DNA of 64,000 nucleotides from Saccharicrinis sp. (GCA_965230625.1 CBDDLL010000001.1:522689-586688); one strand, 5' to 3'. Counted from the first letter of the stretch, positions 1,576 through 38,973 are shown. Numbers and translations are program-made. The notes: a model not told the origin generated them from the letters alone.

Positions 1576-2469
1576 ATGAAGAAACATATTATTCTATATA
1601 TTTCTGCATTAATTATATTGGCAAGTTGTACTAAGCTTAAATTAGCATATAAATATTATATTAATCCATGTTATTATGATAGTCCTGTAAAACAAAACGA
1701 TTTCCCACAACATTTTATCCATGTAGATTTAAAAGATTATTACAACCAAGTAATAACTCTATCTGATTCGTTTATAGTTGACACACTTGAAAATATAGAA
1801 TATAAAGAGCACTCCTATCCTATTTTAGGAATTACCAAAAATCCTACAAGTACAAATACTAGATTATTAATTATTGCAGGAGTACATGGTAATGAAACCG
1901 GAGGTACTTTAGCTATAATTAAACTGCTAAACGACTTAAATAATAATCCATCCCGCTATAAAAACTGGACAATAAAAATAGTAACCCCCATAAATCCGGC
2001 AGGGACAATTGAGATGTCACGTTACAATGAATGTGGTTGTGATTTAAACCGTAAAATGAAGTCATCTAATCAAAAAGGTATAGTAGTTCAAAGAAGAGTT
2101 ATTGAGGAATTTAAGCCTGAATTAATAATATCATTGCATGAATCTCCATCCCAAGGATTTTTAATTCATCCAAACAAACATCTTAATAGTGACTTAAGAA
2201 ATAAAATAATAAACGATATAGAAGCTCAAAATATTAATTTGGCCACACAGGATTACTTTGGCAGAAGCTTAGTTATACCAGGTGTGTCCAAAATAAGTGG
2301 GATGATGAAATTTTTTGAAACAATTGTACAAGTTGAATCACTAAGCGACTATATAAATAAAATGGGCATTATTGAAATTACAACCGAAAGTGGATGGAAT
2401 TCGCAAGATACCTTCCAAAGAGTAAACAGTCATTTGATATTTATCGCTAGTATAATTGATAATTACTAA
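1576..2469 (+). CDS. Zinc hydrolase lipoprotein, M14-like / succinylglutamate desuccinylase-aspartoacylase (AstE/AspA) type
   Basis: Lipoprotein signal (LIILASC). The H-x-x-E zinc motif in IIAGVHGNETGG and a later SLHES histidine are typical of M14/AstE-AspA folds. Confidence 0.55.
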   Translation: MKKHIILYISALIILASCTKLKLAYKYYINPCYYDSPVKQNDFPQHFIHVDLKDYYNQVITLSDSFIVDTLENIEYKEHSYPILGITKNPTSTNTRLLIIAGVHGNETGGTLAIIKLLNDLNNNPSRYKNWTIKIVTPINPAGTIEMSRYNECGCDLNRKMKSSNQKGIVVQRRVIEEFKPELIISLHESPSQGFLIHPNKHLNSDLRNKIINDIEAQNINLATQDYFGRSLVIPGVSKISGMMKFFETIVQVESLSDYINKMGIIEITTESGWNSQDTFQRVNSHLIFIASIIDNY

Positions 2470-2732
2470 CACTACTCCAATAACATGCTAAATTTTCCAC
2501 AATATTTCGGTATCAAAAAAACTGTTTAATATCACATTATAAAACAAGGATTAAATTTTTGTTTGATTAATAATAATTATATTTTGGAAACAACTTTATA
2601 AATAAAACATATTATAATTTTCAGACATTAACCATATCATTAATATTTACTGTGCATATATACAACTAAAATGAATGATATAATAGAAATAAATGTACTG
2701 ACGAAGTGTAATTGTTGTAGCCAATTAGAGCA

Positions 2733-2873
2733 ATGAAGAAACTAATCATTGAACTGTCAAAGAATGAAGCTTTAGTATTGATTGAATTTTTATTACGATT
2801 TCGTGATAAGGACAAATTAAGCATTGAAGATGAAGCTGAAGAACAAATATTGTGGGATTTGTGTGCAATGTAA
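2733..2873 (+). CDS. Small hypothetical ORF (46 aa, MKKLIIELSKNEALVLIEFLLRF...), possibly the first segment of a broken larger gene
   Basis: ATG-initiated ORF read by hand; it is below the ORF-track cutoff. It overlaps the next open segment by ~22 nt. Confidence 0.3.
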   Translation: MKKLIIELSKNEALVLIEFLLRFRDKDKLSIEDEAEEQILWDLCAM

Positions 2874-3413
2874 TTCATCTTGAATATTTTGAAGGGTTAT
2901 TGATACATGAAGATATTGAAAGTATATCTTCTAAAATATCAACTGTTGGACTTGATTTAAGTCGATTTGATAAGAATGGTGTTCCATATGCTTCCATTGA
3001 AGATTTTATGTTACATGTTTCTTTATTTATAAGCGACCCAATTGTAGGAAATATAGTCTTAGGAGCAAGTGGAAGTGCATTGTGGGACGCAATTAAAATG
3101 TCCTCAATTTTAATATGGAGTAGAATTAAAGTAAGGCATTGGGACAGAAGATGAAAATATAAATAAACCACTTAATTTTGGATTACATGTATCAATAGAC
3201 AAAAACACAAAACTTGACTTAAAACTGGGCGGTGATTTAAGTGAAGAATTTGCATTAAAAGCTCTTGATAAGGCCATTGATTTGATAAAAACTACAAAAA
3301 AGAATGAGAACCCTGAGCCTGCTAAATTTTATACTACGAATTCTATTGGTAATTGGTGTGAATTGGATACTCTCGAAGAATTAAGAAAGAAAAGGAAGAA
3401 GAAAAAGAAATAA
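2852..3413 (+). pseudogene. Hypothetical gene interrupted by a frame change (open segments 2852-3154 and 3135-3413)
   Basis: A 100-codon segment ends at 3154. A different frame is stop-free for 93 codons (3135-3413, ending in a ...RKKRKKKKK tail) but has no usable start codon near its 5' end. Confidence 0.35.
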
Positions 3414-3426
3414 AAGAAACTATATT

Positions 3427-4392
3427 ATGAGTGACAAGAAAATTGCAGTAATTTTTGACACGAATTCATATCGAAATTTTGTTAGAGGTAAGAATTTTGA
3501 TGAAGTTATTGAACTTACGAATAAGTTAAGAAAACAAGAGAAAACAAAGGATATTAGACCTTCAGCATCTGTAATTGCTTTGATAGAAATGATTGCAAAT
3601 CTAGCAGAAGGCAAAAATGGATTTAATTATAATGATTGTTTGAACGGAATTGTTGCGATGTCTTACCATTGCTTTGATAATGTTGAGCAAGCTCCTCGAA
3701 TAATACCACACGCATATTTATTAATAGCAAAATCATTTTTTCATCAATTACCCTCACAAGTTGAAGAAAATGTGAAAAATCTTGGGGGATTGTTAAATGA
3801 CTTTAAAAATGATAAAGATATCGCTATCAGACATTATGAAAAGCAAGCTACATTTGAGAACTACAAAGAATATATTGGTAATCTTGAAACAGGGTTTTCT
3901 CAACAAATAATTGCACTTATTGATGGAGTGAAAAGTGAGATTAAAAAAGATTCTCCAGATATTTCTTCAAAACATTTGCGTGAAAAGATGTTAAATTACA
4001 TTGATAGTGATTTGTTTTATAATAATATGTCGATTGCTATATTAACAGCATTATCTAATAAAATGGGATTAAGTTATAGCCAATCTGAATTTAAAAAAAT
4101 GGGAACTTTTTTAAGTGAAAATTTTCCCTTTGCTTCTGGATTTTTCAAATGGATATGTTATGAAGTTGTAGATAAAAATATTGACTTAAATTCAAAAACA
4201 TCAAAAGAAAAAAGATGGAACTGGATTTGGGATTATAATGTGTCTTTTTCTGTCTCTAATTCAACTGTACAAGGAAGAGAAGTGATATTAGTAACTTCCG
4301 ATAAGGATTTAAAACAAATGCTGGCGGATACAGGCTTTGGTGCAAGGGTGATGGAATTAGATGATTACCTTGATTTTGTGGAATTTAAATAA
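3427..4392 (+). CDS. PIN-like nuclease-fold protein with a large central insertion (hypothetical)
   Basis: The N-terminal strand IAVIFDTNSY has an acidic D, followed by the helix ALIEMIANL with an E. The C-terminal VILVTSDKDL supplies two further acidic residues. This order matches the PIN D-E-D-D arrangement. Confidence 0.45.
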   Translation: MSDKKIAVIFDTNSYRNFVRGKNFDEVIELTNKLRKQEKTKDIRPSASVIALIEMIANLAEGKNGFNYNDCLNGIVAMSYHCFDNVEQAPRIIPHAYLLIAKSFFHQLPSQVEENVKNLGGLLNDFKNDKDIAIRHYEKQATFENYKEYIGNLETGFSQQIIALIDGVKSEIKKDSPDISSKHLREKMLNYIDSDLFYNNMSIAILTALSNKMGLSYSQSEFKKMGTFLSENFPFASGFFKWICYEVVDKNIDLNSKTSKEKRWNWIWDYNVSFSVSNSTVQGREVILVTSDKDLKQMLADTGFGARVMELDDYLDFVEFK

Positions 4393-4666
4393 AAGCTGGT
4401 AACACTGTATATACAAAATGGGCGAGATAGTAGTAAATTCAAGGGGTGCAGCTCGCTTAAAATTTTCACGGGTTGATAAGTTTGAAGCCCGCAATCGCCC
4501 ACATTTGCATATACTTGCCGTTGTATGCAAAAAAGACAGCGGTACATGGAAAATTGGATTGATAAATTGAAATTATAAACAGATAGAAAAAGAGCATTGA
4601 TTGAAGGTTGGAGCAAGAAAAAATAGTTTTTGCCCGCCCGCTTCTGCCCTTCGGGACAGTTGGGAA

Positions 4667-4733
4667 GCCAACGCACATTGCACACATTTGCAAATCGCAC
4701 AGGCTGTCGCACAAACCAAAATTTGCAAAAGAG
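4667..4733. repeat. Intergenic repeat, R family, copy R1 (upstream of the STAND gene)
   Basis: Contains GCCAACGC, CACATTTGCAAAT and AAAATTTGCAAAAGAG blocks that recur at 12632-12698. Confidence 0.5.
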
Positions 4734-4773
4734 TGCAATTATCCACGCTTAAAGAAAAAATATATCACTAAGT

Positions 4774-7700
4774 ATGAAAACTCTCGATTCGTCACAATTG
4801 AACTGGAAAAGGTATTGGTGTAAACAAGATGAACTAGTTACACTTGATGATTCTGGATTTTTATTTGACCCTGAGACTAAAGAAACTTTTTATAAGAAAA
4901 CGGATGTTGTTCCTTACAGTGAAATTTCTAATTTAAATTGTTTAGTCTTACTAGGGGAGCCTGGTATTGGAAAATCTACAACGCTTCAAAATGAATTTTT
5001 TAATCATAAAAAGACGCAGAAACCTAATGAAATATGCCTTTTTAAAAATTTAAATGAGTATGGTGACGAGAATAGGTTAATAAAGGAAATCTTTAATGCA
5101 CAAGAATTTGATAAATGGCTAAAATCTGATAAAAAATTGTATTTGTACCTTGATAGTTTTGATGAATGTTTGCTTGAAATTAAAAGGTTATTTCAAATAC
5201 TGAAAAATCAGTTTAGCAAATACAAAGAGATTTCTTCACGGTTTTATCTTAGGATAACTTGTAGGACAGGATATTGGTCAGAATGTTTAACTGTCTTTTT
5301 TAATAATCTTTACGGAACAGTTAATGTTGGAACCTATGAATTAGCCCCAATAAAAAGAAGCGATATTGAAGAAGCAGCACAACAAGTAGGACTTAATTCC
5401 AGTAGTTTTATTGAGGAAATAATCACAAAGGAAATTCAACCCCTAGCAATCAATCCATTAACATTAGACTTATTATTTCAGGCTTACCTTCATTCAAACT
5501 CTTTTCCATCTTCAAAAGAGGAGTTATTCTATTCCGCTTGCAAAAGACTTTGCACCGAACCTAATTTTGAAAGGCAGTTTCTATATCAAGCTAATTGCTT
5601 ATCGCCAGAAAAAAGAATTGCTCTTGCAGCGAGAATAGCTGCCGTAATGGTTTTCTGTGATAAAAGAGTTGTTGATTTACGAAATAACTTCGGATTATCA
5701 GATGAAGCTATTTCTATTGACATTCTGCTTGAAGGTAAAGAATACACAGATAGTTTTGAATTTCAATTTTCACAACAAGATTTAATTGAAACTATAACGC
5801 AGACTTCGCTTTTTTCAAGTAGAGGGGATTTACAGTTTGGTTTTTCTCATCTTGCGTATTCAGAATTTTTAGCAGCAAAATTTATTTCAAATCATGGATT
5901 AGAAATTGAACAGATAAAATCTTTAATTACTCTATCCACAGATGAAGAAAATAAAATAATTCCTCAGATGAAGGGTGTTGCAGCTTGGATGAGTATGATT
6001 AACTCAAAAGTTGCTGAGGATACAATAAAAAATGACCCTCAAAATGTTCTTATTGGTGACTTGGATGTGTTAAGTCTTGAATATAAAGAAAAGCTTGTAA
6101 ACTCACTTTTGGAAAAATTAAGCAACAATACAATAGATGATGGAGATTGGGGTCTACATAAGCAATATAAAAAACTAAATCATCCGAACTTATCAGAACA
6201 GTTAAAACCTTACATTGTAAATAAAGATAGTTATTTCTTAGCACGAAGAGTAGCTATTGATATTGCTGAAGCCTGTAGGTTAACTGAATTAAACTCAAAT
6301 CTAATAGATTTAGCTTTAGATGAATCAGAGGATATCCATGCAAGAAGCAATGCAGTGCATGCACTAATTGAAACTGGCGATATTGAAACCCAAAAGAAGC
6401 TAATTCCGCTTGCTACATTACCTCAAGAGCTTGACAAAGATGATGATATAAAAGGATATTCACTGAGAGCACTTTGGCCAGAAATACTAACTACTTCAGA
6501 AGTCTTTGAGGTTTTAACAACCCCTAAAAGGTCAAATTACAGTGGTGGTTATGTATTTTTCTTGTATCTATTACATGATAGTATTACAAAAGATGATTTA
6601 GATAGCGGATTATCTTGGATTTTGGAGAATATTTCATCAAATAAGGATAACCATTATAAGTTTAATAATCTGGAAGATGTAATAATAAACCTTTCATGGG
6701 AAAATGTAAATTGTATAAAAGATAAGTCCTTATTTGCCAAAGTACTTTTACTTAGAATGCAAAAGTATCAAACAATTTTTCCTACCCCCCAAAGAATAGG
6801 GAAACAATGGAATTCTCTTGTCCTCGATAACAATAACAGACTTACCATTTTTAAAGAATTGATAGAAGTAATAAAGGATGAAGAGGTTCATTTTTTAACA
6901 CACAATGAGATAATAACTAAAGATAACTTTGAAGATATTACAGATATTTTCATCAAAACTGATAGTTCAAATAGCAAACTTAAAATTGCAAAGACCTTAA
7001 CCTATTTTCAATATTCTGAATTTAGTCATATTGATAAAATACTTATGCTTTGTCAAGAACATGAAGAATTTAAAAATGCATTTAGTCATTGGCTAAAGAC
7101 CGTTGAAATTGGTTCTGATGAGGCAAACAAACTTAAACAAGGTGTTGAACAAAGGAAAGAATGGGAGAAAAAATCAAAAGAAAGAAAACAACAAAAGGAT
7201 GCTAAGAAGATTGACATGCCTTTAAGGTTGTCTAATGACTTAGAAAATTTTGAAGAAAGCAGAAATGTTAGTTCTTGGTATCAATTATTTATGGATTTAA
7301 CTCTCACTGAAACAAGTACGCATTATGGTGACGAACTTAATTCAAGTGTATTGAATTTACCTGGCTGGGAGTATGTCGATGAAAATATAAAGGAAAGAAT
7401 TATTGACTCAGCGAAATACTATATTAACAATTTTGATGATAAAAAGTCTGAATGGTTTGGTACAAATACTTTTTATCGCCCTGCTACGGCTGGTTACAAA
7501 TCATTAATCTTGCTTTATAAACTAGACAAACAATTTATAGTAGACTTAACGAGTGAAACTTGGGCTAAATGGAATCATATTTTAATAGATTATCCAGAAT
7601 CTCATGGAATTGCAGGGAAAGATGAAACTTACATTGAACTTATATCAATTTCATTTCAAAATCATAAGCAAGGTATCATAAAGGTGATATTAGAAAAAAT

Positions 7701-8991
7701 TAATAAGGCTAATAGTGGCGATGATAATTACCTAACTTTCCTAAATAAGGTTGATGCATGCATGGATAAAGATTTTCAAGATGCTTTATTAGAGAAGCTA
7801 AAGGGTAGTGAACTACGTGCACAAGTTACAAACATCCTACTCTCTAAGCTACTTGAAAAGGGAAATACTAACGCTATCTCATACAATATTGAATTGTTTA
7901 AAAATTCTAATGGTAGTGATAAAGTATTATATGCAAAATCATTAGCTAGTTTTTGCGATGAAAAAACGTGGGAAATAATTATGGAAGCCATCAAATGCGA
8001 CAAAGATTTCGGAAAAGATTTTTTCTTCTCGTTTGTAGATACTTACGTTGTTGAAATGATACCTCTTCTTGAAAGGATTTCGGAAATTCAAAGTGCAGAT
8101 TTATTTCTTTGGTTGATTGATGAATTCCCTCGTGAAGAAGACCCTGTTTTTGAGGGAGCTCATATGGTTGGTGCACGTGAAAGTGTTGGGAATTTTAGAG
8201 ACCAGATTCTAAGGATTCTTACAGGCAAAGGCACTAAAGAATCCATATTGGCACTTGATAAAATTAAAGCAGCAAGGAATGATTTAAATATAGAATTTTA
8301 TCTTGTTGCTGCTAAAAAGAATTTCCGAGCAAATAATTGGGAGCCTCTTACTCCAAACGAGTTACTAACTCTAGCAAGTAATTCTAAAGCACGTGTTATT
8401 TTAAGTTCAGCTGATTTGATGAATTTAATTCTCGATTCATTAAGTCGACTAGAATTTTCTTTACAAGGAGCTAATTCATTATCAGAAGGACTTTGGAATA
8501 AGTTAAACAGTGGCAATTATACTCCTAAATCAGAAGAGTATATATCAGATTATATTAAGCAACATTTAGATAGAGAATTAAAATCAATAGGTATTTCAAG
8601 TTATCGAGAAGTTCAACTTAGAAAACCTAGGTCAAAAGATTTTGCTGATGGTAGAAAAGGAGAAATTACAGATATTTACGTGTCCTTTACCCATCCTAAA
8701 ACTAAAGAATCTTTTAATGTTATAATTGAAGTAAAAGGTTCAAATAATAAAGAAGTAAATACGAATATGAAAGCTCAGCTCTGTGATAGATATCTTGAAA
8801 CTGACCAATATAAATACGGCATTTATTTAGTTGCATGGTATAATTGCAAGGCTTACAAAAAACAAGTTAATAAAACTCAGCAATCTACTTTATTACAAGC
8901 TAGAAAACACTATAAAGAAATGGCCAGTAAATTAGATGGTGCTGAGAAAAGTATAAAATCTTTTGTTTTAGATTGCTCATTAAGAAATTGA
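4774..8991 (+). CDS. NACHT/STAND-type P-loop NTPase with helical-repeat middle region and C-terminal PD-(D/E)xK (restriction-endonuclease-fold) domain
   Basis: Walker A GEPGIGKST (aa 61-69) and NACHT-style Walker B LYLYLDSFDE (aa 122-131). HEAT-like helical repeats occur mid-protein. The C-terminus has the ordered motifs ...ITDIYVSF...VIIEVKGS...YGIYLVAWY, typical of a PD-(D/E)xK core. Confidence 0.7.
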   Translation: MKTLDSSQLNWKRYWCKQDELVTLDDSGFLFDPETKETFYKKTDVVPYSEISNLNCLVLLGEPGIGKSTTLQNEFFNHKKTQKPNEICLFKNLNEYGDENRLIKEIFNAQEFDKWLKSDKKLYLYLDSFDECLLEIKRLFQILKNQFSKYKEISSRFYLRITCRTGYWSECLTVFFNNLYGTVNVGTYELAPIKRSDIEEAAQQVGLNSSSFIEEIITKEIQPLAINPLTLDLLFQAYLHSNSFPSSKEELFYSACKRLCTEPNFERQFLYQANCLSPEKRIALAARIAAVMVFCDKRVVDLRNNFGLSDEAISIDILLEGKEYTDSFEFQFSQQDLIETITQTSLFSSRGDLQFGFSHLAYSEFLAAKFISNHGLEIEQIKSLITLSTDEENKIIPQMKGVAAWMSMINSKVAEDTIKNDPQNVLIGDLDVLSLEYKEKLVNSLLEKLSNNTIDDGDWGLHKQYKKLNHPNLSEQLKPYIVNKDSYFLARRVAIDIAEACRLTELNSNLIDLALDESEDIHARSNAVHALIETGDIETQKKLIPLATLPQELDKDDDIKGYSLRALWPEILTTSEVFEVLTTPKRSNYSGGYVFFLYLLHDSITKDDLDSGLSWILENISSNKDNHYKFNNLEDVIINLSWENVNCIKDKSLFAKVLLLRMQKYQTIFPTPQRIGKQWNSLVLDNNNRLTIFKELIEVIKDEEVHFLTHNEIITKDNFEDITDIFIKTDSSNSKLKIAKTLTYFQYSEFSHIDKILMLCQEHEEFKNAFSHWLKTVEIGSDEANKLKQGVEQRKEWEKKSKERKQQKDAKKIDMPLRLSNDLENFEESRNVSSWYQLFMDLTLTETSTHYGDELNSSVLNLPGWEYVDENIKERIIDSAKYYINNFDDKKSEWFGTNTFYRPATAGYKSLILLYKLDKQFIVDLTSETWAKWNHILIDYPESHGIAGKDETYIELISISFQNHKQGIIKVILEKINKANSGDDNYLTFLNKVDACMDKDFQDALLEKLKGSELRAQVTNILLSKLLEKGNTNAISYNIELFKNSNGSDKVLYAKSLASFCDEKTWEIIMEAIKCDKDFGKDFFFSFVDTYVVEMIPLLERISEIQSADLFLWLIDEFPREEDPVFEGAHMVGARESVGNFRDQILRILTGKGTKESILALDKIKAARNDLNIEFYLVAAKKNFRANNWEPLTPNELLTLASNSKARVILSSADLMNLILDSLSRLEFSLQGANSLSEGLWNKLNSGNYTPKSEEYISDYIKQHLDRELKSIGISSYREVQLRKPRSKDFADGRKGEITDIYVSFTHPKTKESFNVIIEVKGSNNKEVNTNMKAQLCDRYLETDQYKYGIYLVAWYNCKAYKKQVNKTQQSTLLQARKHYKEMASKLDGAEKSIKSFVLDCSLRN

Positions 8992-9002
8992 AAATGAAAA
9001 GT

Positions 9003-9032
9003 CAGCCCACACAGCCAAGCACATTTGCAATT
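9003..9032. repeat. Intergenic repeat, R family, copy R2 (30-mer CAGCCCACACAGCCAAGCACATTTGCAATT)
   Basis: Matches 12632-12661 at 29 of 30 positions, counted by hand. Confidence 0.8.
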
Positions 9033-9034
9033 TA

Positions 9035-9067
9035 TTTGAGACAATTCCAATGGGTAGCTTAAATTTG
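9035..9067 (+). promoter_or_regulatory. Candidate Bacteroidota sigma-A promoter (-33 TTTG / -7 TAnnTTTG) for the AEP-helicase operon
   Basis: TTTG at 9035-9038, a 21-nt spacer, then TAAATTTG at 9060-9067, 4 nt before the ATG at 9072. Confidence 0.3.
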
Positions 9068-9071
9068 TAGT

Positions 9072-11213
9072 ATGACAGATACCGCAATAAATATCGAATT
9101 ATATAAATCTCTTTTCAAGGGAAGAACCGATATTTATGCTACCCGATGGGAAAAAGAAGGTAGAAGTGGTTACATGCCAGCTTATAAAGTTGATTGGACA
9201 GATTATAACAAACACAAAGCCCAAGGTGGCACGTTTAAAGACTACAAAAATAAGGAATACCTGGCATTTGATAACAAAGCCATTGAAACCCATTTGTCAG
9301 GAAAAGAAACAAATGGTATTTATCCACTCTTAGAAGACAATACTTCATTTTTTATTGCAGTAGATTTCGACAAACAAAATTGGCAAGAAACTATAATCAG
9401 ACTTTATGAAGCTTGTCAAAAGCATGACCTACCTGCACATATTGAGCGTTCACGGTCTGGCAATGGAGGACATTTATGGATATTCTTTGAACAAGCGTTT
9501 CCTGCTGAACAAAGTCGGAAATTAATGTTTGAGTTGTTAAGACATTCAAATATTATATCTCATTTTGAGAAAGAACCAAGTTTCGATCGTTTATTTCCAA
9601 ATCAGGATTATCATTCAGGTAAAGGCATGGGAAATCTTATTGCCTTACCATTACAAGGCAAATCTTTAGAACAAGGTAACTCGTGTTTTATAAATCCAGA
9701 AACATTAGAACCATATCAAGACCAATGGACATATCTTGAAACTATTAAAAAGGTTCCAACCCAAAAATTAAAAGAACTTTACGAAGACCTTTTTAATACA
9801 AAACCACAGGAAGTTTTTGTTTCCACCTCTCAAAACGGTAAAACCAGTTATCATCTTGAAATTGTAATCAGCAATCAGATTTATCTGAAACGTGCACAAT
9901 TAAGTCAAAAGTTGATTGTGTTTTTACGAGAACAATTAAACTTTTATAATTCTGATTATCTGGCAAAGAAGAACCTAGGAAAAAGTGTCTTTAATACCGA
10001 GAAATTCTTCAAGTTAATTGAAGAATCAGAAAGTGAAGTAATGATACCAAGAGGATTTTCGGCAAGTTTGGTTCAATTTTGCAATAAAGAATCGATTCCG
10101 TATAAAATAATAGACAAAAGGGAAAAGAAAGAACCGATTGATTTTGATTCCAACATTGAGTTATTAGACCATCAGGAAATCGCTCTTGAACAGGTAAGAG
10201 AAAAGGATTTTGGTGTTATTGTGTCTCCACCAGGTTCTGGAAAAACAGTAATTGGACTTGAAGTTATATCGGAGAAACGACAACCAGCATTAATTATAGT
10301 ACACCGAAAACAATTATTTGACCAGTGGATTGAACGAATACAGGATTTTCTTAAGATTCCAAAGAAAGAAATCGGACAAATTGGGAACCAGAAAAAGAAG
10401 ATTGGTAAACATATAACCATCGCTATGATTCAATCTCTATCAAGGATTGAGGACTATTCTGAAATATCTAGTGCATTTGGAACAATTATTATCGATGAGT
10501 GTCACCATATTCCTGCAAAATCATTCCGTGAAGTAATTGTAAATTTCAATGCCTTTTATCTGTATGGTTTAACTGCTACTCCGAAACGGAAAAACAATGA
10601 CCAAAAACTGATTTTTATTTATATTGGAAATATTCTGCATCAAGTTAATCAGACTGATTATCTAGCTGAGAAAAATATAAAAACTGAAATAAACATAAAG
10701 GAAACTGAACTTTTCGCTCCATTTGATTATAAGATAGATAAATATGAAACCATTTCTCGGATTCTTGTTCATGATACTCAGCGAAACTCGTTGATATTAA
10801 AAGATATTGAAGAAAATGCAAGTCGCTTTAAAACTATCCTCATTTTATCTGAACGAAAAACCCATGTCGATATTCTAAATCTTTACTTAAAAGATAAATA
10901 TGAGACTATAACGATTCATGGAGAAGATTCTGAAAGTTCGAGAAAAAGTAAAATAGAACAAATTAAGCAAGGTCATTTTAAAATCGTAATTTCGACAGGT
11001 CAATATTTTGGAGAAGGCATTGACATAAGCAATCTGGAATGTCTATTTATTGTTTATCCATTTGCTTTTGAGGGTAAATTGATTCAATACATTGGCAGAA
11101 TTCAGCGTTCTGAAAATCCACCAGTTATATTTGATTATCGAGATTCCAAAATTGATTATTTTGAAAAGATGTTTAAACAGCGGAAACGCTATTACAAGAA
11201 ATTATTAAAGTAA
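9072..11213 (+). CDS. Archaeo-eukaryotic primase (AEP/PrimPol-like) domain fused to an SF2 (type III restriction Res-like, DEAH) helicase
   Basis: N-terminus carries AEP motif I FFIAVDFD (DxD, aa 98-100), motif II SGNGGHLWIFF and GNLIALPL. C-terminus carries Walker A SPPGSGKT, IIDECHH, GLTATP, GEGIDI and QYIGRIQR. Confidence 0.75.
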   Translation: MTDTAINIELYKSLFKGRTDIYATRWEKEGRSGYMPAYKVDWTDYNKHKAQGGTFKDYKNKEYLAFDNKAIETHLSGKETNGIYPLLEDNTSFFIAVDFDKQNWQETIIRLYEACQKHDLPAHIERSRSGNGGHLWIFFEQAFPAEQSRKLMFELLRHSNIISHFEKEPSFDRLFPNQDYHSGKGMGNLIALPLQGKSLEQGNSCFINPETLEPYQDQWTYLETIKKVPTQKLKELYEDLFNTKPQEVFVSTSQNGKTSYHLEIVISNQIYLKRAQLSQKLIVFLREQLNFYNSDYLAKKNLGKSVFNTEKFFKLIEESESEVMIPRGFSASLVQFCNKESIPYKIIDKREKKEPIDFDSNIELLDHQEIALEQVREKDFGVIVSPPGSGKTVIGLEVISEKRQPALIIVHRKQLFDQWIERIQDFLKIPKKEIGQIGNQKKKIGKHITIAMIQSLSRIEDYSEISSAFGTIIIDECHHIPAKSFREVIVNFNAFYLYGLTATPKRKNNDQKLIFIYIGNILHQVNQTDYLAEKNIKTEINIKETELFAPFDYKIDKYETISRILVHDTQRNSLILKDIEENASRFKTILILSERKTHVDILNLYLKDKYETITIHGEDSESSRKSKIEQIKQGHFKIVISTGQYFGEGIDISNLECLFIVYPFAFEGKLIQYIGRIQRSENPPVIFDYRDSKIDYFEKMFKQRKRYYKKLLK

Positions 11214-11215
11214 AT

Positions 11216-12547
11216 ATGGCAGAAAGTCAAAACATAGAATGGAAAGAAAGCTGGCGTGATGAATACCTGAAATGGATTTGTGGTTTTGCAAATGCACAAG
11301 GAGGTAAAATCTATATTGGCAAAAACGATAAAGGAGAAGTTGTTGGAATTGACAATGCTAAACGATTAATGGATGATTTGCCAAATAAGATTGTAACAAA
11401 TCTCGGGATAATCTGTGATATAAACCTATTAGCTGAAAATAACAAAGAAGTCATTGAAATAATTGTTGAGCCTTATCCAAATCCTGTAAATTATAAAGGA
11501 CAGTATCACTATAGAACTGGAAGTACTAAGCAAGAGTTAAAAGGAGCTGCGTTAGATAAATTCTTGCTTCAAAAGCATGGTAAAACATGGGATAGTGTAC
11601 CTGTTCCTAAAATTGCGATTGAAGACCTTGATGGTAATGCTTTTAATATTTTCAAGAAGAAAGCTGAAAAAAGTGGTCGTGTCGACGATGAAGTTTTAAA
11701 TGACTCAAACCAATCATTATTAGAAAACCTTGACTTAATTGAAGACGACTATATTACAAGAGCAGGAGTTTTATTATTCCACCCTAAACCTGACAAGTTA
11801 TTTACAGGTTCATACATCAAAATTGGTTTTTTTGTAACCGATGATGATTTGCGTTTTCAGGATGAAATCCATGGAAATGCATTCGACCAAATAGAAAAGA
11901 CACTCGACTTACTAAAGACAAAGTACTTGAAGGCAGAAATAAGATATGAAGGAATAAGCAGAGTTGAAGAATTTCCATTTCCAGCTCCTGCATTTCGAGA
12001 GGCAATTTTGAATGCCATTGCTCATAAAGATTATAGTAGCACGACTCCTATACAGATTAGTGTTTATGAGGATAAAATGATTATTTGGAATCAAGGTCAA
12101 TTACCTGAAAATTGGACTGTAGATAAGTTGTCTGAAAAACATCCATCTATGCCATTTAATCCATTGGTTTCAAATACACTATTCCGAAGTGGATACATTG
12201 AAGCTTGGGGGCGTGGCACAATCAATATGATAAATGAATGTGCAAAGCGAAATATTCCACGTCCAAGCTACAAATACGATTTTTCTGGATTTATTGTGGA
12301 GTTTAGAAAGTTCAGTAAGGATTACTTGGAGTCACTTGGATTAAGTGAAGCATTTATCAAAATCATCCTTTATGTGCAAGAAAAAGGACAAATAGGAAAT
12401 ACTGAAGTACAAGAGATTTGTGGTGTATCGAAACGAACTGCTTCTACTTATTTAGCAGAATTAGAGAAAGATTATTTGGATAAAAAAGGAGCTACAGGTA
12501 AGGGAACTCTTTACTCATTAAAGGGGCAACAAAGGGGCAGTTATTGA
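11216..12547 (+). CDS. AlbA_2 (Schlafen-type, 'divergent AAA') domain protein with HATPase_c_4-like region and C-terminal wHTH
   Basis: N-terminus ESQNIEWKESW...ICGFANAQGGKIYIGKNDKGEVVGI is the classic AlbA_2 opening. REAILNAIAHKDY and WGRGT motifs lie in the ATPase-like part. The start is 2 nt after the helicase stop. Confidence 0.75.
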   Translation: MAESQNIEWKESWRDEYLKWICGFANAQGGKIYIGKNDKGEVVGIDNAKRLMDDLPNKIVTNLGIICDINLLAENNKEVIEIIVEPYPNPVNYKGQYHYRTGSTKQELKGAALDKFLLQKHGKTWDSVPVPKIAIEDLDGNAFNIFKKKAEKSGRVDDEVLNDSNQSLLENLDLIEDDYITRAGVLLFHPKPDKLFTGSYIKIGFFVTDDDLRFQDEIHGNAFDQIEKTLDLLKTKYLKAEIRYEGISRVEEFPFPAPAFREAILNAIAHKDYSSTTPIQISVYEDKMIIWNQGQLPENWTVDKLSEKHPSMPFNPLVSNTLFRSGYIEAWGRGTINMINECAKRNIPRPSYKYDFSGFIVEFRKFSKDYLESLGLSEAFIKIILYVQEKGQIGNTEVQEICGVSKRTASTYLAELEKDYLDKKGATGKGTLYSLKGQQRGSY

Positions 12548-12631
12548 CTTTATTTAAATCTCAAACAATAGATTATCAGAATGTTGATTGAAATTTAAAG
12601 GGGAACTAAAGGGGCAATAAGATTAAATTGC

Positions 12632-12661
12632 CAGCCCACACAGCCAAGCACATTTACAATT
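12632..12661. repeat. Intergenic repeat, R family, copy R3
   Basis: CAGCCCACACAGCCAAGCACATTTACAATT has one mismatch to 9003-9032. It is followed by the AAAATTGCAAAAGAG block (12684-12698) shared with R1. Confidence 0.8.
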
Positions 12662-12819
12662 CACACAAGCCAACGCTTGACCTAAAATTGCAAAAGAGCT
12701 TGTCTGTCTGCCACCGCTTTTTTGCCGACCCTAAAAACTATTTTTTTCGGGAACAGTAGTGCTTCGAATGAGAGGATTTTAGATTGTGCTAGATTGATAA
12801 CTTATTGACAATGAATGAA

Positions 12820-12951
12820 GCCCAGCATACAACAATAAATATAAGGCATAGGGCAAAAAGTGCTATATTTGAGCTTAGTAACATTTAATAAAAATTGTAA
12901 GGGTTTGATAGGTTAGTGTTCCAAAGTGCCCTACGACCTCATATTCGTGCC
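12820..12951. repeat. Structured intergenic repeat, C family, copy C1 (interrupted by the IS; continues at 14642)
   Basis: Aligns by eye over ~130 nt with 19372-19500. Shared blocks are AATAAATATA, AGTGCTA.ATTTGAG, ATTTAATA, GATAGGTT, ATATTC and CCGTT. Confidence 0.6.
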
Positions 12952-14641
12952 GTCAGACTGTCTAAAAACCAAATTCACTGTTGAAAACGATTCATAAGTT
13001 GTGACATGGAAATTATCGTATGGCCCTGTTGTTTTGTATCTTATAGATATGAAATTCATACAAGGACAAAACAGGGAACAAACACATCTTTTTCCAATTT
13101 CTTTGGATCAGGCCATTGAACCAGACAATGAAGTGCGTATAATAGATTTGTTTGTAGATAGCCTTGATATTGGCAACATGGGTTTTGATGTTGGGTTTGT
13201 TGAAAACGGGAGGCCTGCGTATCATCTGTCCGACTTACTAAAACTCTACATTTATGGGTATATGAATCGCATCCGTTCGTCGCGACAGTTAGAAAAGGAA
13301 AGTAAACGTAATATTGAGGTGATGTGGTTAATACATTCACTTTCGCCCGATCACAATACCATCTCAAACTTCCGCAAAAACAACCCCAAAGCCATAAAAA
13401 AGGTATTTAGGGAAACAGTACGCATAGTCCGTAATTTCGAACTTATTGGCGGCAAATAACTGGCAGGCGATAGCACAAAGCTACGTGCACAGAACAGTAA
13501 AAAAAACAACTATAACCAAAAGAAAATAGACCGGCATATCGAATATATTGAGAACAAAATAGATGAACATAACAAGGCTATTGCGGAAAAAGATGGGGAT
13601 AAGCAGGAGCATAAAAAAGAAATAGAGAAACACGAAAACCGAAAAGAAGGCTATGAGCAGTTGGAGCAACAGTTAAAGCAATCCGGTCTGTCGCAAATAT
13701 CCACTTCCGACCCTGATAGTCGTCACATGATTACCCGTAACAATATAATGGAAGTAGCCTATAATGCCCAAACTACGGTTGACGACAAAAACAACCTACC
13801 GATAGATTACAAAGTGACCAATGCCAACGACTGCAAGGCCATGGAAAATATGCTTCAAAGAGCCAAAAGTATTCTGGGCACCAATAAATTTACGGCCTTG
13901 TACGATAAGGGATATCATACGGGATCGGAATTTGATATGGCGGATAAATTAGGTATAAAAACAATTGTAGCCATTCCCGGCGTGGCAGCTCAAGCTCCAG
14001 ACCCGGCATATAATGTCGAGCACTTTAAATATGATAATTTGGATGATTGTTACATTTGCCCCAGGGGTCACCGAATGATCATCACCGGAAAATTACACCA
14101 AGCCAAAACTTATCAATTTAAGCGGTACACTACTAAAGCATGCAAAAGTTGTGAGGATAAATATAAATGTAGTAAAGCAAAGTATGGTAAAGCCATACAG
14201 CGTAGCGAATATCAAGAGCTCATCAAGTTAAATAAGGATAGAGTAAATAATAACCAAAATTATTACAGGCGTCGACAGGCCATTGTCGAACACCCCTACG
14301 GCACAATCAAACGGCAATGGGGATTCAATTACATTATAACAAAGAAATTTATCCATCGAGCCGAAGCAGACCTTGGCCTGATAATGAATGCCTATAATCT
14401 AAGAAGGCTTATCAATATCATAGGAAAAGAGCAGCTGGTGAAATACCTGCAAAGTATAGTCTCTGCGTTGCTAAATCAAAACAGCCTAAATTGTTTCTTC
14501 TCGAATATTGTAAGCTATTTAATTATCAAAATAAATTATTATCATTATTTTCAGTTCGTAAATAAAACGGCAATAAGGAGCTAAAAACGGCATAAAAAAC
14601 TATGAATCATTAAATGTTTTTGAGTTTTTAGACAGACTGAC
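12952..14641 (+). mobile_element. IS1182-family insertion sequence (1690 bp)
   Basis: 18-bp terminal inverted repeats: GTCAGACTGTCTAAAAAC (12952-12969) against the reverse complement of 14624-14641, GTCAGTCTGTCTAAAAAC, with 1 mismatch. It encloses a DDE transposase reading frame. Confidence 0.8.
13049..14584 (+). pseudogene. IS1182-family transposase interrupted by a single in-frame TAA (13457-13459)
   Basis: ORFs 13001-13459 and 13661-14584 are in the same frame. The stretch 13460-13660 is stop-free and reads LAGDSTKLRAQNSKKNN.... The N-terminus MKFIQGQNREQTHLFP is typical of this family. Confidence 0.75.
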
Positions 14642-14717
14642 GTTGGGCATAATTTTGTCACATACATAACAGGCAGACACATAGTCTGATAAATACTAAT
14701 TATTATAATTTATTTAA

Positions 14718-15239
14718 ATGAAAACTTATTTTATCCTTATTGCTCTGTGTAGTATTTTTTTAATTGATTGTAATGCTCAAAAATGTGAAGTTACTGAAGA
14801 TCCGTTTACAAACGAAAAAGTAATATCATTTAACTGGAAAAATGGAATCGTTTTTTACGAATTAAAAAGTGATAAAATCAAATTTGGAATCACGTGTAAC
14901 TACAATGGTGATCGAGATGTAATTATTGAAAAAGGACATAAAGCATTTTTTAAGTTTGATAATGGAGAAACGATGGAGTTAACTACATGTGTTGATTCTC
15001 ATCCAGACACAAATATTAGTGCCTCTCAATATGGCGCTGCTGTATTTACATATTATACTTTCACATTTTCCCTATCAAAAGATCAATTAAATAAGCTAGC
15101 AGTTAATAAGACGACAGCAGTTAGGTATCCTGATACAAATGGTGAATATTTAGATGTCATTTTAAAAGGAAAGAGGAACAAGTATACTAAAGCGGTACTT
15201 GAAGGTGGACAATGCATTTTAAGTAATTTAATGAATTAA
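14718..15239 (+). CDS. Hypothetical secreted protein (173 aa)
   Basis: N-terminal signal peptide (MKTYFILIALCSIFLIDCNAQ). No family recognised. Confidence 0.5.
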   Translation: MKTYFILIALCSIFLIDCNAQKCEVTEDPFTNEKVISFNWKNGIVFYELKSDKIKFGITCNYNGDRDVIIEKGHKAFFKFDNGETMELTTCVDSHPDTNISASQYGAAVFTYYTFTFSLSKDQLNKLAVNKTTAVRYPDTNGEYLDVILKGKRNKYTKAVLEGGQCILSNLMN

Positions 15240-15645
15240 TACATTCATAATAAAACTATGCCCAATAAATAGGACTATGAGCGGTCTGTAAGACCAAGCG
15301 TGGTAGTCCATGTTGGACTACATCCCGGTTTCTATTTAACCTATGTACTTATCGACGCTTTTTTATATTCTGAAGTAGGTAGAAGGTGTTGTTAAGTGGT
15401 CTAAAAGAATTGTAAATATAAGGTAGAAAAAAGAAGAGATCAAGTGCTTTTTGCGAAGATAGGGTACTGTATTTTTTTAGAGCGAAGGTGATTGGATATA
15501 GAAAGCAGATTAAATACATTTTGTTGTTTGTTCTGAAAAAGTACATTTGCTACATTTGACCAAAGCTATCCCGGAGGGATTTAGTTCAACAATTAATAAA
15601 AAATACTACCTGTCATTAGATTAATATTTGTAATAAAAAAATAAA

Positions 15646-16092
15646 GTGAAAGTTAAAAAGCTCATATGGACTTTAGTTGGACTTGCGATTTTATCCTTAG
15701 TTTTTCTTTGGTTATATTTTGTTGTAGGTTTTAGTTCAACTTATCTGCCACTTGAAAAATATTACAGTAATATTACTCAAAATGAAATAAAGCAAAGACT
15801 TGAAATACTAGATTCAACGCAAGGCTTTAATGTCAATATTACTGATACAACAGGACAATACCCAAAAGAATATAATGTGTATTTTAAAATTACAGATAAC
15901 AATAATTGTGAATACCATTTAAAATTTCATCTAGATAAATCATTAATTCATAAAGAGCAGACTGAAATATCCCTATTAGGAGTATTTGACAGAGACAAGA
16001 ATATTGGAGGTTATAGTAAATTAGACTCTAAATATATTATTCATCTTATTGACTGTTTTGAAAAGGAAGTACTTCCAAGAATAAATAACTAA
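15646..16092 (+). CDS. Hypothetical membrane-anchored protein (148 aa, GTG start)
   Basis: One N-terminal TM helix (LIWTLVGLAILSLVFLWLYFVVGF). No family recognised. Confidence 0.4.
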   Translation: MKVKKLIWTLVGLAILSLVFLWLYFVVGFSSTYLPLEKYYSNITQNEIKQRLEILDSTQGFNVNITDTTGQYPKEYNVYFKITDNNNCEYHLKFHLDKSLIHKEQTEISLLGVFDRDKNIGGYSKLDSKYIIHLIDCFEKEVLPRINN

Positions 16093-16357
16093 TGCCAATA
16101 ACTAAGCGTCCTGCCTGTTTGTAAAACAGAAGCTGGACGCAGTGTTGACGAAAACCGGGAAAAAGTCTCTGATATGTTATGGAGATTGATATATTTTTAT
16201 TGAGGTCTTAGTGAGATGCTTTTAAAGTATAGTTTAAGTAAAAGGTGTACTGATTATAATAGAACTTTCAAAAAAAAAGGATTTATAGTCTTTTCTGTCA
16301 TGTCATTTGGACTTATTTTTCTGTATAGCACATAGCTATTCTATTCACCCATGGGTG

Positions 16358-17482
16358 TTATTTTAAATCTATCATATAATCAGCTCCAAGAGGAACTACT
16401 TTATTAGGAGGTCCCCTGATATCGAACCGTGCAATGATAACCAGGTCTCCAACTTTGCAACAAGGACATTTGTTGTGCCTTAAAGGTTCTCGATGATGGA
16501 TATTCACTTTACCCAGCTGGGTTTCTATTATTGCTAATACTTTACGCTTAACAGCAGAAGCCAAAATTCCATAATGCCTGATACGCACAAAACCTTTGGG
16601 TAATATGTGCAGGGCAAAACGCTTTATAAAGTCATGGCTACTTAAAGTGAGCTTATACTTTTGGCCACCCTTTCTGTAATCCTTGGCTTCAAAAGTCACC
16701 TTTTGGTTTTCTATATTCTTGATACGGTGATTTGATATTGCGATTTTATGGGTATACCTGCCAAGGTATTCAATAACTTGTGAGGGACCATAAAAAGGGT
16801 GCTTGCAATAGATAACCCATTTCTTTTTAAACAGTTGTTTGTACAAAGCTTCCAGTTGTGGCCATTCTTTTCTAAGAGATGCTATAAACTTTGCCCTAAA
16901 CACCTTTGACATAGTCTTAACCGGGAAAAGAAATTTATCTTTTCCCCTGGCATTTTTCCATTGGTTAGAAGAAGTAATTCCGCCACCAGGTACAATACAG
17001 TGCAGGTGCGGGTGTAACCATAGGTTTTGTCCCCATGTGTGTAATATGGAAACCATGCCAGTTTTTGCACCCAAAAACCTGTGATTAGCAGCAAAGCCCT
17101 GGATTACCTGCCAACTGACTTTAAACAGTAAGTTATAAAGTTTATCTGGCATAAAAACTGCGAGTTTATTGAGTTCACAGGGCAAGGTAAATACTATATG
17201 ATAGTAAGTCGTATTTAGCAGTTCTTCTCCGCATTTGCGTATCCATAGCTCCTTTTTATGCCCCTGGCATTTGGGACAATGACGGTTACGGCAACTATTG
17301 TAACTAATATGCAGTTTATGGCATTGAGGATTGGTGCATTGGTCAACATGGCCGCCCATTAGGTAAGTGCGGCAGATTTCAATGGCATACAATGTTCTTA
17401 GTTTCCATTTGTTAAGAACCAACTTGTGTAGCCTATGATGTTCTTGCTGTAGCACCTGTGCTACTTCAAAGGCTGGTTTCAT
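16358..17482 (-). CDS. IS91-family transposase (zinc-binding N-terminal domain + Y2 HUH transposase)
   Basis: Cys-rich N-terminus (CTNPQCHKLHISYNSCRNRHCPKCQ), an HTWGQNLWLHPHLHCIVPGGG HUH-like segment, and YLGRYTHKIAISNHR with the catalytic Tyr region. Confidence 0.8.
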   Translation of the reverse strand: MKPAFEVAQVLQQEHHRLHKLVLNKWKLRTLYAIEICRTYLMGGHVDQCTNPQCHKLHISYNSCRNRHCPKCQGHKKELWIRKCGEELLNTTYYHIVFTLPCELNKLAVFMPDKLYNLLFKVSWQVIQGFAANHRFLGAKTGMVSILHTWGQNLWLHPHLHCIVPGGGITSSNQWKNARGKDKFLFPVKTMSKVFRAKFIASLRKEWPQLEALYKQLFKKKWVIYCKHPFYGPSQVIEYLGRYTHKIAISNHRIKNIENQKVTFEAKDYRKGGQKYKLTLSSHDFIKRFALHILPKGFVRIRHYGILASAVKRKVLAIIETQLGKVNIHHREPLRHNKCPCCKVGDLVIIARFDIRGPPNKVVPLGADYMIDLK

Positions 17483-37262: not shown

Positions 37263-37290
37263 AATAAATAGTTATCCTTTATTCAGATAG

Positions 37291-38214: not shown

Positions 38215-38457
38215 CTTCCTTTTTTTAAAAATCTGACAAAGATAACTCAGAAGAAATACATAGAACCATTCCTCCTGTTATGACAAAAGCAAATCCCTTA
38301 ATGCAAAGTCGCTTAAAGAGTTTACAATATAGCCACACCAAGACTAAGTAAAATTTACCATATAGATAAACGGTAAATTTATTTAGAGCCGACAATATCG
38401 CGAGAGATGTCCCCACCAAGACTCTATAAGAATAAGTTTACTTCAGCCGTTATTAGA

Positions 38458-38610
38458 TTAAAAATCCAGTAGTTTATTTGCTGCTTCCTTCTTACTTTCG
38501 GTATCAAAACTGTCCAGATAGTTCTGAGTGGTTCTTAAACTACTATGCCTTATGCTTTTCGGGACAAATGATATGGTATATCTAAACCTACTATTTAATG
38601 GAATTGCATC
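38458..38610 (-). pseudogene. Remnant of the 3' end of a second tyrosine integrase
   Basis: A hand translation gives ...FVPKSIRHSSLRTTQNYLDSFDTESKKEAANKLLDF*. This is the conserved C-terminal H..(T)TQ.Y box, with no upstream catalytic domain. Confidence 0.4.
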
Positions 38611-38970: not shown

Positions 38971-38973
38971 AAA

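Follow-up and report, generated by a model that had tools for sequence, protein, structure and literature searches.

A probable defence island of independent gene modules framed by a conserved hairpin in Saccharicrinis sp.

The gene tract and the occurrence of its genes

We analysed a stretch of 64,000 nt from Saccharicrinis sp. (GCA_965230625.1 CBDDLL010000001.1:522689-586688), here called the window, in which four neighbouring genes on the + strand (g1 to g4, Table 1) encode a PIN-like protein, a STAND/NACHT NTPase, a fusion of an archaeo-eukaryotic primase (AEP) to a helicase, and a Schlafen-like ATPase. A reading made from the DNA alone (the sequence-only reading) had described these genes as a candidate conflict or defence island, and this description is borne out in several respects. 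The four genes are co-oriented open reading frames (ORFs), their domain repertoire is recovered by Pfam (g3 and g4), by NCBIfam (g2) and by a PIN-type signature (g1), and the island character is supported by the restriction-modification (R-M), TIR and RhuM-type neighbours of g3 homologues. An insertion sequence (IS) lies directly downstream, as had been described, and is recognised by ORFs with DUF772 and DDE matches and by inverted ends of 19 nt. The GC content of the region (~31-34%) is similar to that of the flanks, and no CRISPR array was found in the 64-kb window. We conclude that the tract is probably a defence island of at least three independent modules, which are g1, g2 and the pair g3-g4, and that a conserved structured DNA element, a hairpin of 63 nt, frames them. 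The gene content is ordinary in kind; the genes are new members, or variants, of families already known or predicted, and not a new four-gene system.

The separation into modules is seen in 80 loci that carry g3 homologues of 65-93% identity and that come from Bacteroidales, Marinilabiliales, Ignavibacteria, Chlorobiota and some metagenome-assembled genomes of other phyla (loci and contigs used for comparison carry L numbers below). Neither g1 nor g2 was detected in any of the 80, even at an E value of 0.1, whereas 35 of them have a g4 homologue that begins no more than a few bases from the stop codon of g3. The neighbourhood of g3 and g4 (9072-12547), for which the sequence-only reading had proposed a check across genomes, is thus conserved, and a failure of the genes to occur together elsewhere was found for the set of four and not for this pair. 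Furthermore, a RhuM gene adjoins g3 in 11 of the 80 loci, and any other neighbour recurs in at most five. The variable neighbours include type I HsdR, an Eco57I-type restriction enzyme with its methylase, C5 and N6/N4 methylases, a TIR protein and IrrE-like peptidases.

For g2, we found 974 homologues across many phyla, many of them full length (~1400 aa). In the three contexts that we examined, the g2 homologue stands alone among unrelated genes, and the varied surroundings contain no g1, g3 or g4. The g1 family comprises 59 homologues of ~320 aa each, and g1 is absent beside the g2 homologues examined. One g1 homologue (L225) lies beside Gabija and 1.3 kb from a different STAND-plus-nuclease-like protein, and another (L226) lies in another variable region and is followed by a hairpin.

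These occurrences bear on the idea, implied by the sequence-only reading, that the tract encodes a single new defence system of several components, in which a PIN effector, a NACHT switch, an AEP-helicase and a Schlafen ATPase act together. The genes are indeed adjacent and co-oriented, and the position of the g1 homologue in L225, close to a STAND-plus-nuclease-like protein, also speaks for such a system. However, g1 and g2 are missing from all of the g3 loci, g2 homologues are solitary, and elements with a full or truncated hairpin lie between g1 and g2 as well as between g2 and g3. In addition, the g2 homologue of contig L085 is directly followed by the hairpin that here trails g4. We consider a single four-gene system very improbable.

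Table 1. Features of the window discussed in the text (CM, covariance model)
Feature	Position	Strand	Description
g1	3427-4392	+	321-aa split PIN-like protein with large helical insert; independent single-gene module
Second non-coding repeat family	4400-4530	+	just after g1, ~130 nt; blastn copies of 74-89% identity
Short-loop hairpin variant	~4497-4540	+	weak CM match at 4500-4535; extends slightly beyond the 4400-4530 block
5' frame of the g2 cassette	4519-4740	+	~160-nt leader, then H1 ending 34 nt before the g2 start codon
H1	4677-4740	+	full hairpin; CM R1 68.4 bits, E 4e-16
g2	4774-8991	+	1405-aa STAND/NACHT NTPase, helical sensor region, predicted C-terminal PD-(D/E)xK-type nuclease at ~aa 1250-1360; single-gene, Avs-like
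Truncated hairpin	9003-9033	+	consists of the 5' box and the 5' arm; left junction of the inserted g3-g4
g3	9072-11213	+	713 aa; TOTE-type AEP primase-polymerase, ~125-aa linker, XPB/Rad25-like SF2 (superfamily 2) helicase
g4	11216-12547	+	443-aa Schlafen/AlbA_2, HATPase_c_4 and wHTH (winged helix-turn-helix) protein; starts 2 nt past the g3 stop codon
3' frame	12632-12843	+	5' box, H2, ~140-nt tail
H2	12643-12705	+	full hairpin; CM 73.5 bits, E 2e-17
Third non-coding repeat family	12826-12944	+	~110 nt, between hairpin tail and IS; blastn copies
IS5/IS1182-like IS	12951-14642	+	DUF772, DDE_Tnp_1_6 and DDE_Tnp_1; transposase ORFs 13001-13459 and 13661-14584
IS91-family element	16358-18252	-	Y2 HUH transposase 16358-17482; Xer/IntI-like tyrosine recombinase 17479-18252
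Second tyrosine recombinase	37291-38214	-	38% identical to the IS91-associated one; beside a 382-aa ORF

Domains and predicted functions of the four proteins

The N-terminal part of g3 (residues 7-235) matches PF22548, the AEP-TOTE family of Pfam, with 290 bits (cut-off 27) and an E value of 1.7e-86, on positions 2-229 of the 230 in the profile, and residues 362-680 match the helicase families ResIII (1.6e-31), Helicase_C (1.9e-11) and DEAD. The protein also matches the PADLOC model PDLC01465 of CRISPR-associated primase-polymerases (PrimPol; 4e-70) and the NCBIfam model PrimPol_Msp (1.6e-26). Among PDB sequences, the matches are an archaeal XPB/Rad25 helicase (5e-23) and the PrimPol domain 7NQD/7NQF (7e-11 for 7NQD), which is deposited as a 'TPR_REGION domain-containing protein' and which we take to be the CRISPR-associated PrimPol. 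The linker gave no match in Pfam (E up to 5) or among PDB sequences. Since the Pfam family of the N-terminal domain is that of the 'TOTE conflict system, Archaeo-Eukaryotic Primase domain', the fusion of an AEP with an SF2 helicase already has a name, which corrects the statement of the sequence-only reading that no named system uses it. The name given by NCBI's annotation pipeline (PGAP) to the Escherichia coli homologue, 'TOTE conflict system archaeo-eukaryotic primase domain-containing protein', agrees with this, and the match to the CRISPR-associated PrimPol model is a second link to a named system.

Both halves of g3 retain their characteristic residues. In 15 homologues of 33-85% identity, including those of E. 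coli and Acinetobacter, the DxD, sxH and hD motifs of the AEP are invariant (D98-x-D100, S127, S129, G132, H134 and D172), and so are Walker A, DECH and motifs III and VI of the helicase (G390/K391/T392, D475/E476, T501-A502-T503 and Q672/G675/R676). The family is large, with more than 7900 proteins at an E value of 1e-10 or better, of which the best 120 have 77-100% identity, and the AEP domain alone recruits 5468 clusters at 50% identity. Full-length relatives of ~32-33% identity occur on 183 plasmids. The E. coli homologue, which was found among the plasmid records (full length, 32% identity; E. coli loci L227, L229 and L230), occurs with 80% or more of its length in 684 of the 5426 complete E. 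coli genomes (13%). In E. coli O157 (WP_000233452.1), it stands as a single gene downstream of homologues of alpA and yfjI within a CP4-57-like island, at the place where K-12 has abpA/abpB, the Hachiman system. For a gene of an island, g3 is unusually conserved, with 65-93% amino acid identity across families and phyla (L001-L080).

AEP-helicase fusions, such as ORF904 of pRN1 and the primases of satellites and plasmids, are replication proteins. With or without g4, g3 might instead be a primase-helicase for replication initiation or DNA-damage tolerance that belongs to the host or to an integrated mobile element. Replicating plasmids and satellites is the classical task of primase-helicase fusions, g3-like genes are found on the 183 plasmids mentioned above, the E. 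coli homologue lies in a P4/CP4-57-like island, and an identity of 65-93% across phyla of the FCB group (Bacteroidota, Ignavibacteriota and Chlorobiota) is unusual for immune genes. However, no integrase, Rep or origin-like partner is conserved beside g3 in the 80 loci, where the neighbours are R-M, TIR and RhuM genes. The helicase is an XPB-like SF2 protein and not one of the replicative superfamilies SF3, SF4 or SF6. Furthermore, the E. coli island has a separate replication-type gene, YfjI (DUF3987), and the g3 homologue there occupies the cargo position of abpAB. Lastly, no close relative of g3 was found in viral contigs (IMG/VR), which also leaves g3 as a phage gene unsupported. We regard a replication role as improbable, and these comparisons support a stand-alone conflict function of g3 and weaken a role in replication. 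In the literature that we searched, no experimental test of a TOTE-type AEP-helicase was found, and searches that combined PrimPol, helicase and defence gave no relevant result.

The promoter consensus of Bacteroides is well established. Upstream of g3, we find a putative promoter of the Bacteroidota type at 9035-9067 (+), with TTTG at 9035-9038, a spacer of 21 nt and TAAATTTG at 9060-9067, which ends 4 nt before the ATG. The string TATATTTGTAAT(A/G)TG is kept upstream of most g3 homologues (L001-L045), so that the -7 box TAnnTTTG lies 4-6 nt before the start codon. Because the box lies so close to the start codon, the mRNA of g3 may be leaderless or nearly so. In the upstream regions of the homologues, the -33-like TTT(C/G), which lies 33 nt before the start codon, is supplied by the 3' outer arm of the upstream hairpin.

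In g4, all three Pfam matches are above their cut-offs, namely SLFN_AlbA_2 (6e-16, residues 3-108), HATPase_c_4 (2e-17, 277-362), which belongs to the histidine-kinase-like ATPases, and HTH_24 (3e-5, 381-419). Where both genes occur in the same loci, g4 is 50-61% identical and g3 69-93%, for instance 51% against 85%. As g3 is much better conserved in the same loci, g4 appears to be an exchangeable partner and not a co-evolving subunit, and we infer that it is a frequent, non-obligatory partner of g3. There are g4 clades at 50-61% identity, and the stem variant of the hairpin that follows g4 tracks the g4 clade.

The second gene, g2, aligns with the NCBIfam model EruA over residues 47-813 only (6.7e-77, 259.7 bits; cut-off 1000) and with HyoA below its cut-off (4.8e-54, 183 bits); its Pfam STAND matches are all below threshold. 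In 25 homologues of 33-69% identity, the residues G61/G64/G66/K67 of Walker A (GxxGxGK(S/T)) and D127/D130/E131 of Walker B (DSxDE) are invariant, as is a C-terminal set, E1254...D1300...E1319-x-K1321. In an AlphaFold model of the C-terminal 271 residues (pLDDT, the predicted local distance difference test score, of 84), this set lies on an alpha-beta-beta-beta-alpha-beta core. The C-terminus has no match in Pfam (E up to 5) or among PDB sequences, and Foldseek searches of the PDB gave weak matches only (E >0.1), which include the PD-(D/E)xK nucleases Cap4, HamA, AspBHI and MspJI. As these fold similarities are weak, the label 'NACHT-nuclease' is well motivated and does not stand for a demonstrated fold match. 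The protein has what broadly characterises Avs and bacterial NACHT STAND proteins, that is Walker A and B motifs, a long helical C-terminal region, a fused effector motif and a single-gene layout. Judged by its sequence, g2 is a single-gene STAND protein related to Avs10/Erebus/Hypnos.

The first gene, g1, has a PIN-type signature, FDTNSYR...LVTSDKD with the VTSDxD motif. In its family, D11 (within FDTNSYR), E54, D269, T290 and D292 are invariant and D294 is nearly so. The AlphaFold2 model is confident (pLDDT 92.8), and the predicted protein looks like a split PIN domain with a long helical insert. Fold matches to the PIN domains of SMG6/EST1A and VapC are weak (Foldseek against the PDB; best E ~0.6 over ~77 columns), and searches of Pfam (E up to 5), PADLOC, NCBIfam and PDB sequences gave no match.

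Taken together, these features suggest how the modules might act. The helicase of g3 would load on invading or replicating foreign nucleic acid, and its PrimPol, coupled to the XPB-like translocase, would make or extend strands there, by which replication would be poisoned or a signal created. The more variable g4 could be a nucleic-acid-binding, ATP-dependent sensor or regulator. By analogy with Avs proteins, the helical region of g2 would bind a phage protein, which would lead to NTP-dependent oligomerisation and switch on the C-terminal PD-(D/E)xK nuclease. Lastly, g1 would be a PIN-type nuclease, and the 63-nt hairpin with its GCCAAC-type boxes would mark the boundaries of exchangeable units.

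The hairpin and the frame of the cargo

The hairpin was obtained from sequence that is common to the intergenic regions after g1, g2 and g4, by iterative nhmmer and then by a covariance model. It is an imperfect palindrome that consists of an outer stem of 7 bp, an invariant core (5'-GCACATT / AAAGAGC-3') with two A.A mismatches, an inner stem of 9-10 bp, and a loop of ~22-27 nt with a conserved sequence, roughly CGCACAAGCCAACGC..AACC. The structure is supported by covariation in 35 copies. In these, 89% of the cells are paired, compared to 67% in shuffles and 25-45% in slid registers; 15 of the 18 pairs change on both sides, and 147 cells are doubly changed where 49 are expected. Among the pairs, 546 are Watson-Crick, 5 are G-T and 25 are A-C, and this scarcity of wobble pairs looks more like a constraint on DNA than one on RNA. 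In 136 of 141 distinct copies, the better fold is that of the bottom strand, which is complementary to the genes; this may just reflect the replacement of the A.A mismatches of the core by T.T. Both flanks (5' and 3') and the loop contain boxes of the GCCAAC type in 46-61% of the copies, compared to 2.5% in the background. Only two full copies are present in the 64-kb window, both on the + strand, and we reject a genome-wide REP-like repeat on this count. Rfam has no family for the hairpin; a search of 2400-16500 at E values up to 1 gave one chance-level miRNA match. Literature searches with strings of the hairpin sequence gave no relevant result. As far as we could find, the hairpin frame has not been described, and it is the part of this tract that is worth following.

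Copies of the hairpin are found next to defence genes in other genomes. In the g3 and g2 loci (L003-L085), 26 of 83 contain a total of 40 copies, all of which are co-oriented with the genes. We also scanned metagenomes with a pattern that specifies the core and three loop bases only and leaves the stems free, which gave at least 123 matches; all metagenome counts in this text are among the matches listed (contigs L105-L224). The unspecified stems turned out to be complementary in 112 of 123. Of the ORFs within 3 kb upstream of the hairpin, 168 are co-oriented with it and 17 are not. The distance from the stop codon of the nearest upstream ORF to the hairpin core has a median of 19 nt and a sharp mode at 15-22 nt, and a T-run follows the hairpin in 11 of the 112 copies. 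Many of the genes just upstream are R-M genes (Eco57I-type, HsdM/N6, N6_N4 and C5 methylases, HsdR, ResIII and YgjP); others encode SMC_N, AAA_21 and AAA_23 ATPases, UvrD, DUF4411, DUF6804 and AlbA_2 proteins. Seven further hairpin loci on six contigs come from IMG/VR, and R-M gene pairs are found at these as well. Overall, the genes that adjoin hairpins in Bacteroidota, Ignavibacteriota and Chlorobiota include those of R-M systems, Avs2 and TIR proteins and further defence genes. Labilibaculum, Draconibacterium and Sunxiuqinia are among the genera with isolates that carry the hairpin. In one copy (L016:386-447), the 5' outer arm (ATTTGGC) does not pair with the 3' outer arm (GCTATTT) and each arm fits a different subtype, so that this copy may be a recombinant site.

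In the window, the hairpins are part of larger conserved blocks, as the comparison with contig L085 shows. This contig has a g2 homologue (68% amino acid and 70.6% nucleotide identity) inside the same non-coding blocks. Between the 5' frame and L085, the identity is 84% along 234 nt and rises to 93% in a core of ~150 nt, and the 3' frame is 80% identical to L085 7680-7888, which directly follows the g2 homologue there. The frame is thus better conserved (80-93%) than the coding sequence of g2 that it contains (70.6%). Downstream of g2, the homology between the window and L085 stops exactly after ...GCACATTTGCAATT, past the 5' arm of the hairpin, and the remainder of the L085-type hairpin and its tail resume 3.6 kb further on, after g4. 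Therefore, the pair g3-g4 lies inside a single hairpin of the L085 type, which is the 3' hairpin of g2. The truncated hairpin at the left junction is a 30-nt direct repeat of 12632-12661 (29 of 30 positions identical; no chance matches in shuffles) and does not fold (z +1.9). The two copies of this repeat bracket g3-g4 and mark both of its junctions. The same frame can also hold unrelated cargo: in L111, the leader with its hairpin and the tail enclose an Avs2 equivalogue (6739-10965, -; 1531 bits against an NCBIfam cut-off of 1000) that is unrelated to g2. Remnants of a g4-like gene are seen after Avs2 in this contig. Across loci, 17.7% of the homology breakpoints lie within 60 nt of a hairpin, compared to 1.7% expected, which is a 10-fold enrichment.

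The view of the sequence-only reading that the tract of ~8 kb has defined ends is thus supported, with ends that are conserved blocks of ~210-220 nt, each with a 63-nt hairpin. Its choice of a 13-nt A/T-rich block as the mark of these ends does not hold. The block AAAAATAGTTTTT is present at 4619-4631 as described, and its inverted copy lies at 12733-12745, 10 nt from where it had been placed. With up to one mismatch, the 13-mer has 3 matches in the window where 2.1 are expected, a number reached by 31 of 100 shuffles, and of 147 hairpins, only 6 have a similar 13-mer nearby on either side. We thus reject the 13-nt inverted repeat as a terminal repeat; the two 13-mers seemed to mark ends because they lie inside the conserved 5' and 3' frame blocks.

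The function of the hairpin can be read in two ways. It may be a recombination or processing site of a cassette-exchange system that has the logic of integrons with an unrelated sequence. As a single-stranded DNA site for a tyrosine recombinase, an HUH (Y2) enzyme or both, it would then serve to assemble and shuffle defence genes (R-M, Avs2, Avs10-like, TIR, TOTE AEP-helicase and others) in Bacteroidota, Ignavibacteriota and Chlorobiota, which have hardly any classical integrons. We put this forward tentatively, as a reading that is rather doubtful at present. It is also possible, at somewhat less than even chance, that the hairpin is only a regulatory site, an insulator or a transcription terminator, which accompanies genes in horizontal transfer and has no part in moving them, and that the cargo is swapped by ordinary homologous recombination. 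The short distance to stop codons (median 19 nt) and the co-orientation with genes fit a site of this kind, and the 3' outer arm supplies the -33-like element of the g3 promoter. In addition, no recombinase is consistently near, as a Y2 gene is present in 0 of the 112 metagenome hairpin contigs. However, a T-tract is missing after 101 of the 112 copies, the loop is large and conserved in sequence, the GCCAAC-type boxes are far above background, and the pairs are almost devoid of G-T. A mere terminator would also have to be reconciled with non-coding flanks that are more conserved than their cargo, with breakpoints that are enriched at hairpins, and with unrelated cargo inside the same frame.

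Several points weigh against the reading of the tract as a modular defence island with a hairpin frame. The defence role of g1 to g4 is one that we infer from their sequences. The assignments of g1 as a PIN protein and of the g2 C-terminus as a nuclease are based on motifs, with no significant fold match (Foldseek, PDB), and g2 is far under the equivalogue cut-off of EruA (260 vs 1000 bits). The plasmid-borne relatives of g3 and the classical use of primase-helicase fusions in replication, both discussed above, count here too. As g3 occurs without g4 in over half of the loci, the label of g4 as a partner is likewise an interpretation. The hairpin could merely travel with acquired genes, and a minority of hairpins follow housekeeping genes. 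Lastly, the left junction of g3-g4 lacks the loop and the 3' arm, which does not fit a clean reciprocal exchange unless a deletion came later.

For the question of how defence islands come together and exchange their cargo outside integron-bearing Proteobacteria, the hairpin provides a concrete handle that can be modelled in sequence, with a covariance model, an invariant core and a rule of orientation. At least two of the framed, exchangeable units consist of one gene each, from antiviral families that are known (Avs2) or related to known ones (Avs10-like). If the hairpin is indeed a recombination site, it would reveal a new cassette platform in a major phylum of gut and environmental bacteria, and whatever lies between two hairpins would become a cheap search for new defence genes. 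Furthermore, the E. coli homologue of g3 is a convenient experimental entry point to the abundant TOTE-type AEP-helicases.

Besides the hairpins, the window contains further repeats and mobile elements. The second non-coding repeat family has copies in L017 (two), L213, L065, L008, L125 and others, and the third in L006, L167, L212, L189, L001, L180, L160 and L142. On its two sides, the IS has the 3' frame of the cassette tract and two orphan ORFs, g5 and g6. Its inverted ends (12951-12969 and 14624-14642) are 95% complementary, and its split transposase reflects either a frameshift or inactivation. The IS91-family element has Pfam matches to Y2_Tnp, Zn_Tnp_IS91 and Phage_integrase and an NCBIfam IS91 match of 400 bits; its recombinase reaches 176 bits with the integron-integrase model TIGR02249, below the cut-off of 265. 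The element has its own conserved end hairpin at ~16050-16120, ~250-330 nt past the transposase stop codon, which differs from the cassette hairpin. The pair of Y2 transposase and recombinase lies 3.6 kb from H2, and such pairs are also found within 10 kb of hairpins in L032, L042, L085 and L098. A link between the hairpin and this pair is suggestive, as a lead from five loci and not as a general partnership. The second tyrosine recombinase lies ~760 nt from a tRNA-Arg(CCT) gene at 38974-39047, and the region 36114-39047 may be another integrative element.

Comparison with known systems

The name TOTE stands for TPR, OB, TBP and Effector (Aravind, Iyer and Burroughs 2022, as cited in PMC12458937). 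Like the AEP of these systems, the N-terminal domain of g3 matches AEP-TOTE nearly end to end, and NCBI names its homologues accordingly. However, measured against this secondary description, no TPR, OB/CSD or TBP protein lies beside g3 here or recurs beside it in the 80 loci. TPR and CSD domains were found neither in g1-g4 or g5-g6, nor in the recurrent neighbour clusters of the 80 loci, nor in the profiled neighbours, and no TBP-like Pfam match was found in the scanned ORFs of the window or in sampled neighbours. The recurrent partners of g3 are instead the AlbA_2/HATPase_c_4/wHTH protein and RhuM. As far as the description cited there goes, g3 thus carries the AEP domain of TOTE systems outside the canonical operon. 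The partner g4 has the three domains of the COG2865-type proteins (Schlafen/AlbA_2, HATPase_c_4 and wHTH) in that order. The CRISPR-associated PrimPols (7NQD, 7NQF, PrimPol_Msp and PDLC01465) have an AEP fold that is homologous to that of g3, whereas g3 is fused to an XPB-like helicase and has no link to Cas1-Cas2 or a reverse transcriptase; no cas genes were found among the genes profiled around g3 (about 300-31,000).

Erebus, Hypnos and bNACHT64 have been grouped as Avs10 and are reported to be activated by the phage major capsid protein (2026 preprint, PMC12803255). With Avs10, EruA and HyoA, g2 has in common the NACHT NTPase and part of the helical region, the single-gene layout and the size, and the C-terminus of EruA can be aligned to the corresponding nuclease-like part of a related protein. 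The difference is that the score of g2 is a quarter of the equivalogue cut-off of EruA and that g2 is family-specific from residue 814 to the C-terminus.

For the hairpin, the closest comparisons are with the attC sites of integrons and with the substrates of HUH enzymes. Surveys with IntegronFinder found almost no integrons in Bacteroidetes (PMC9024848). We reject an identity with attC on the basis of the motifs: in 35 copies, the hairpin has no RYYYAAC / GTTRRRY boxes and no AAC/GTT pair, and has instead the core GCACATT...AAAGAGC, variable outer arms and a conserved loop. The units that it frames also differ from integron cassettes in that they often contain several genes. No adjacent intI, attI or Pc platform was found, and the nearest tyrosine recombinase lies 4.8 kb downstream on the other strand, inside the IS91-family element. 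The likeness to attC concerns the organisation. In both, the structure is kept while the stems differ between copies together with the gene next to them, the site lies just 3' of an ORF, the copies are co-oriented with the genes, the exchangeable cargo is often related to defence, and the bottom strand folds better.

Compared to IS91/ISCR elements, the orientation to the hairpins is not constant, as it is opposite in the window and the same in L098. The element here also has a different end hairpin of its own, and its type of transposase does not accompany the hairpins of the metagenome contigs, as mentioned above. What the hairpin shares with the substrates of HUH nucleases is the classic layout of their sites, in which a hairpin with a conserved loop is combined with direct repeat boxes.

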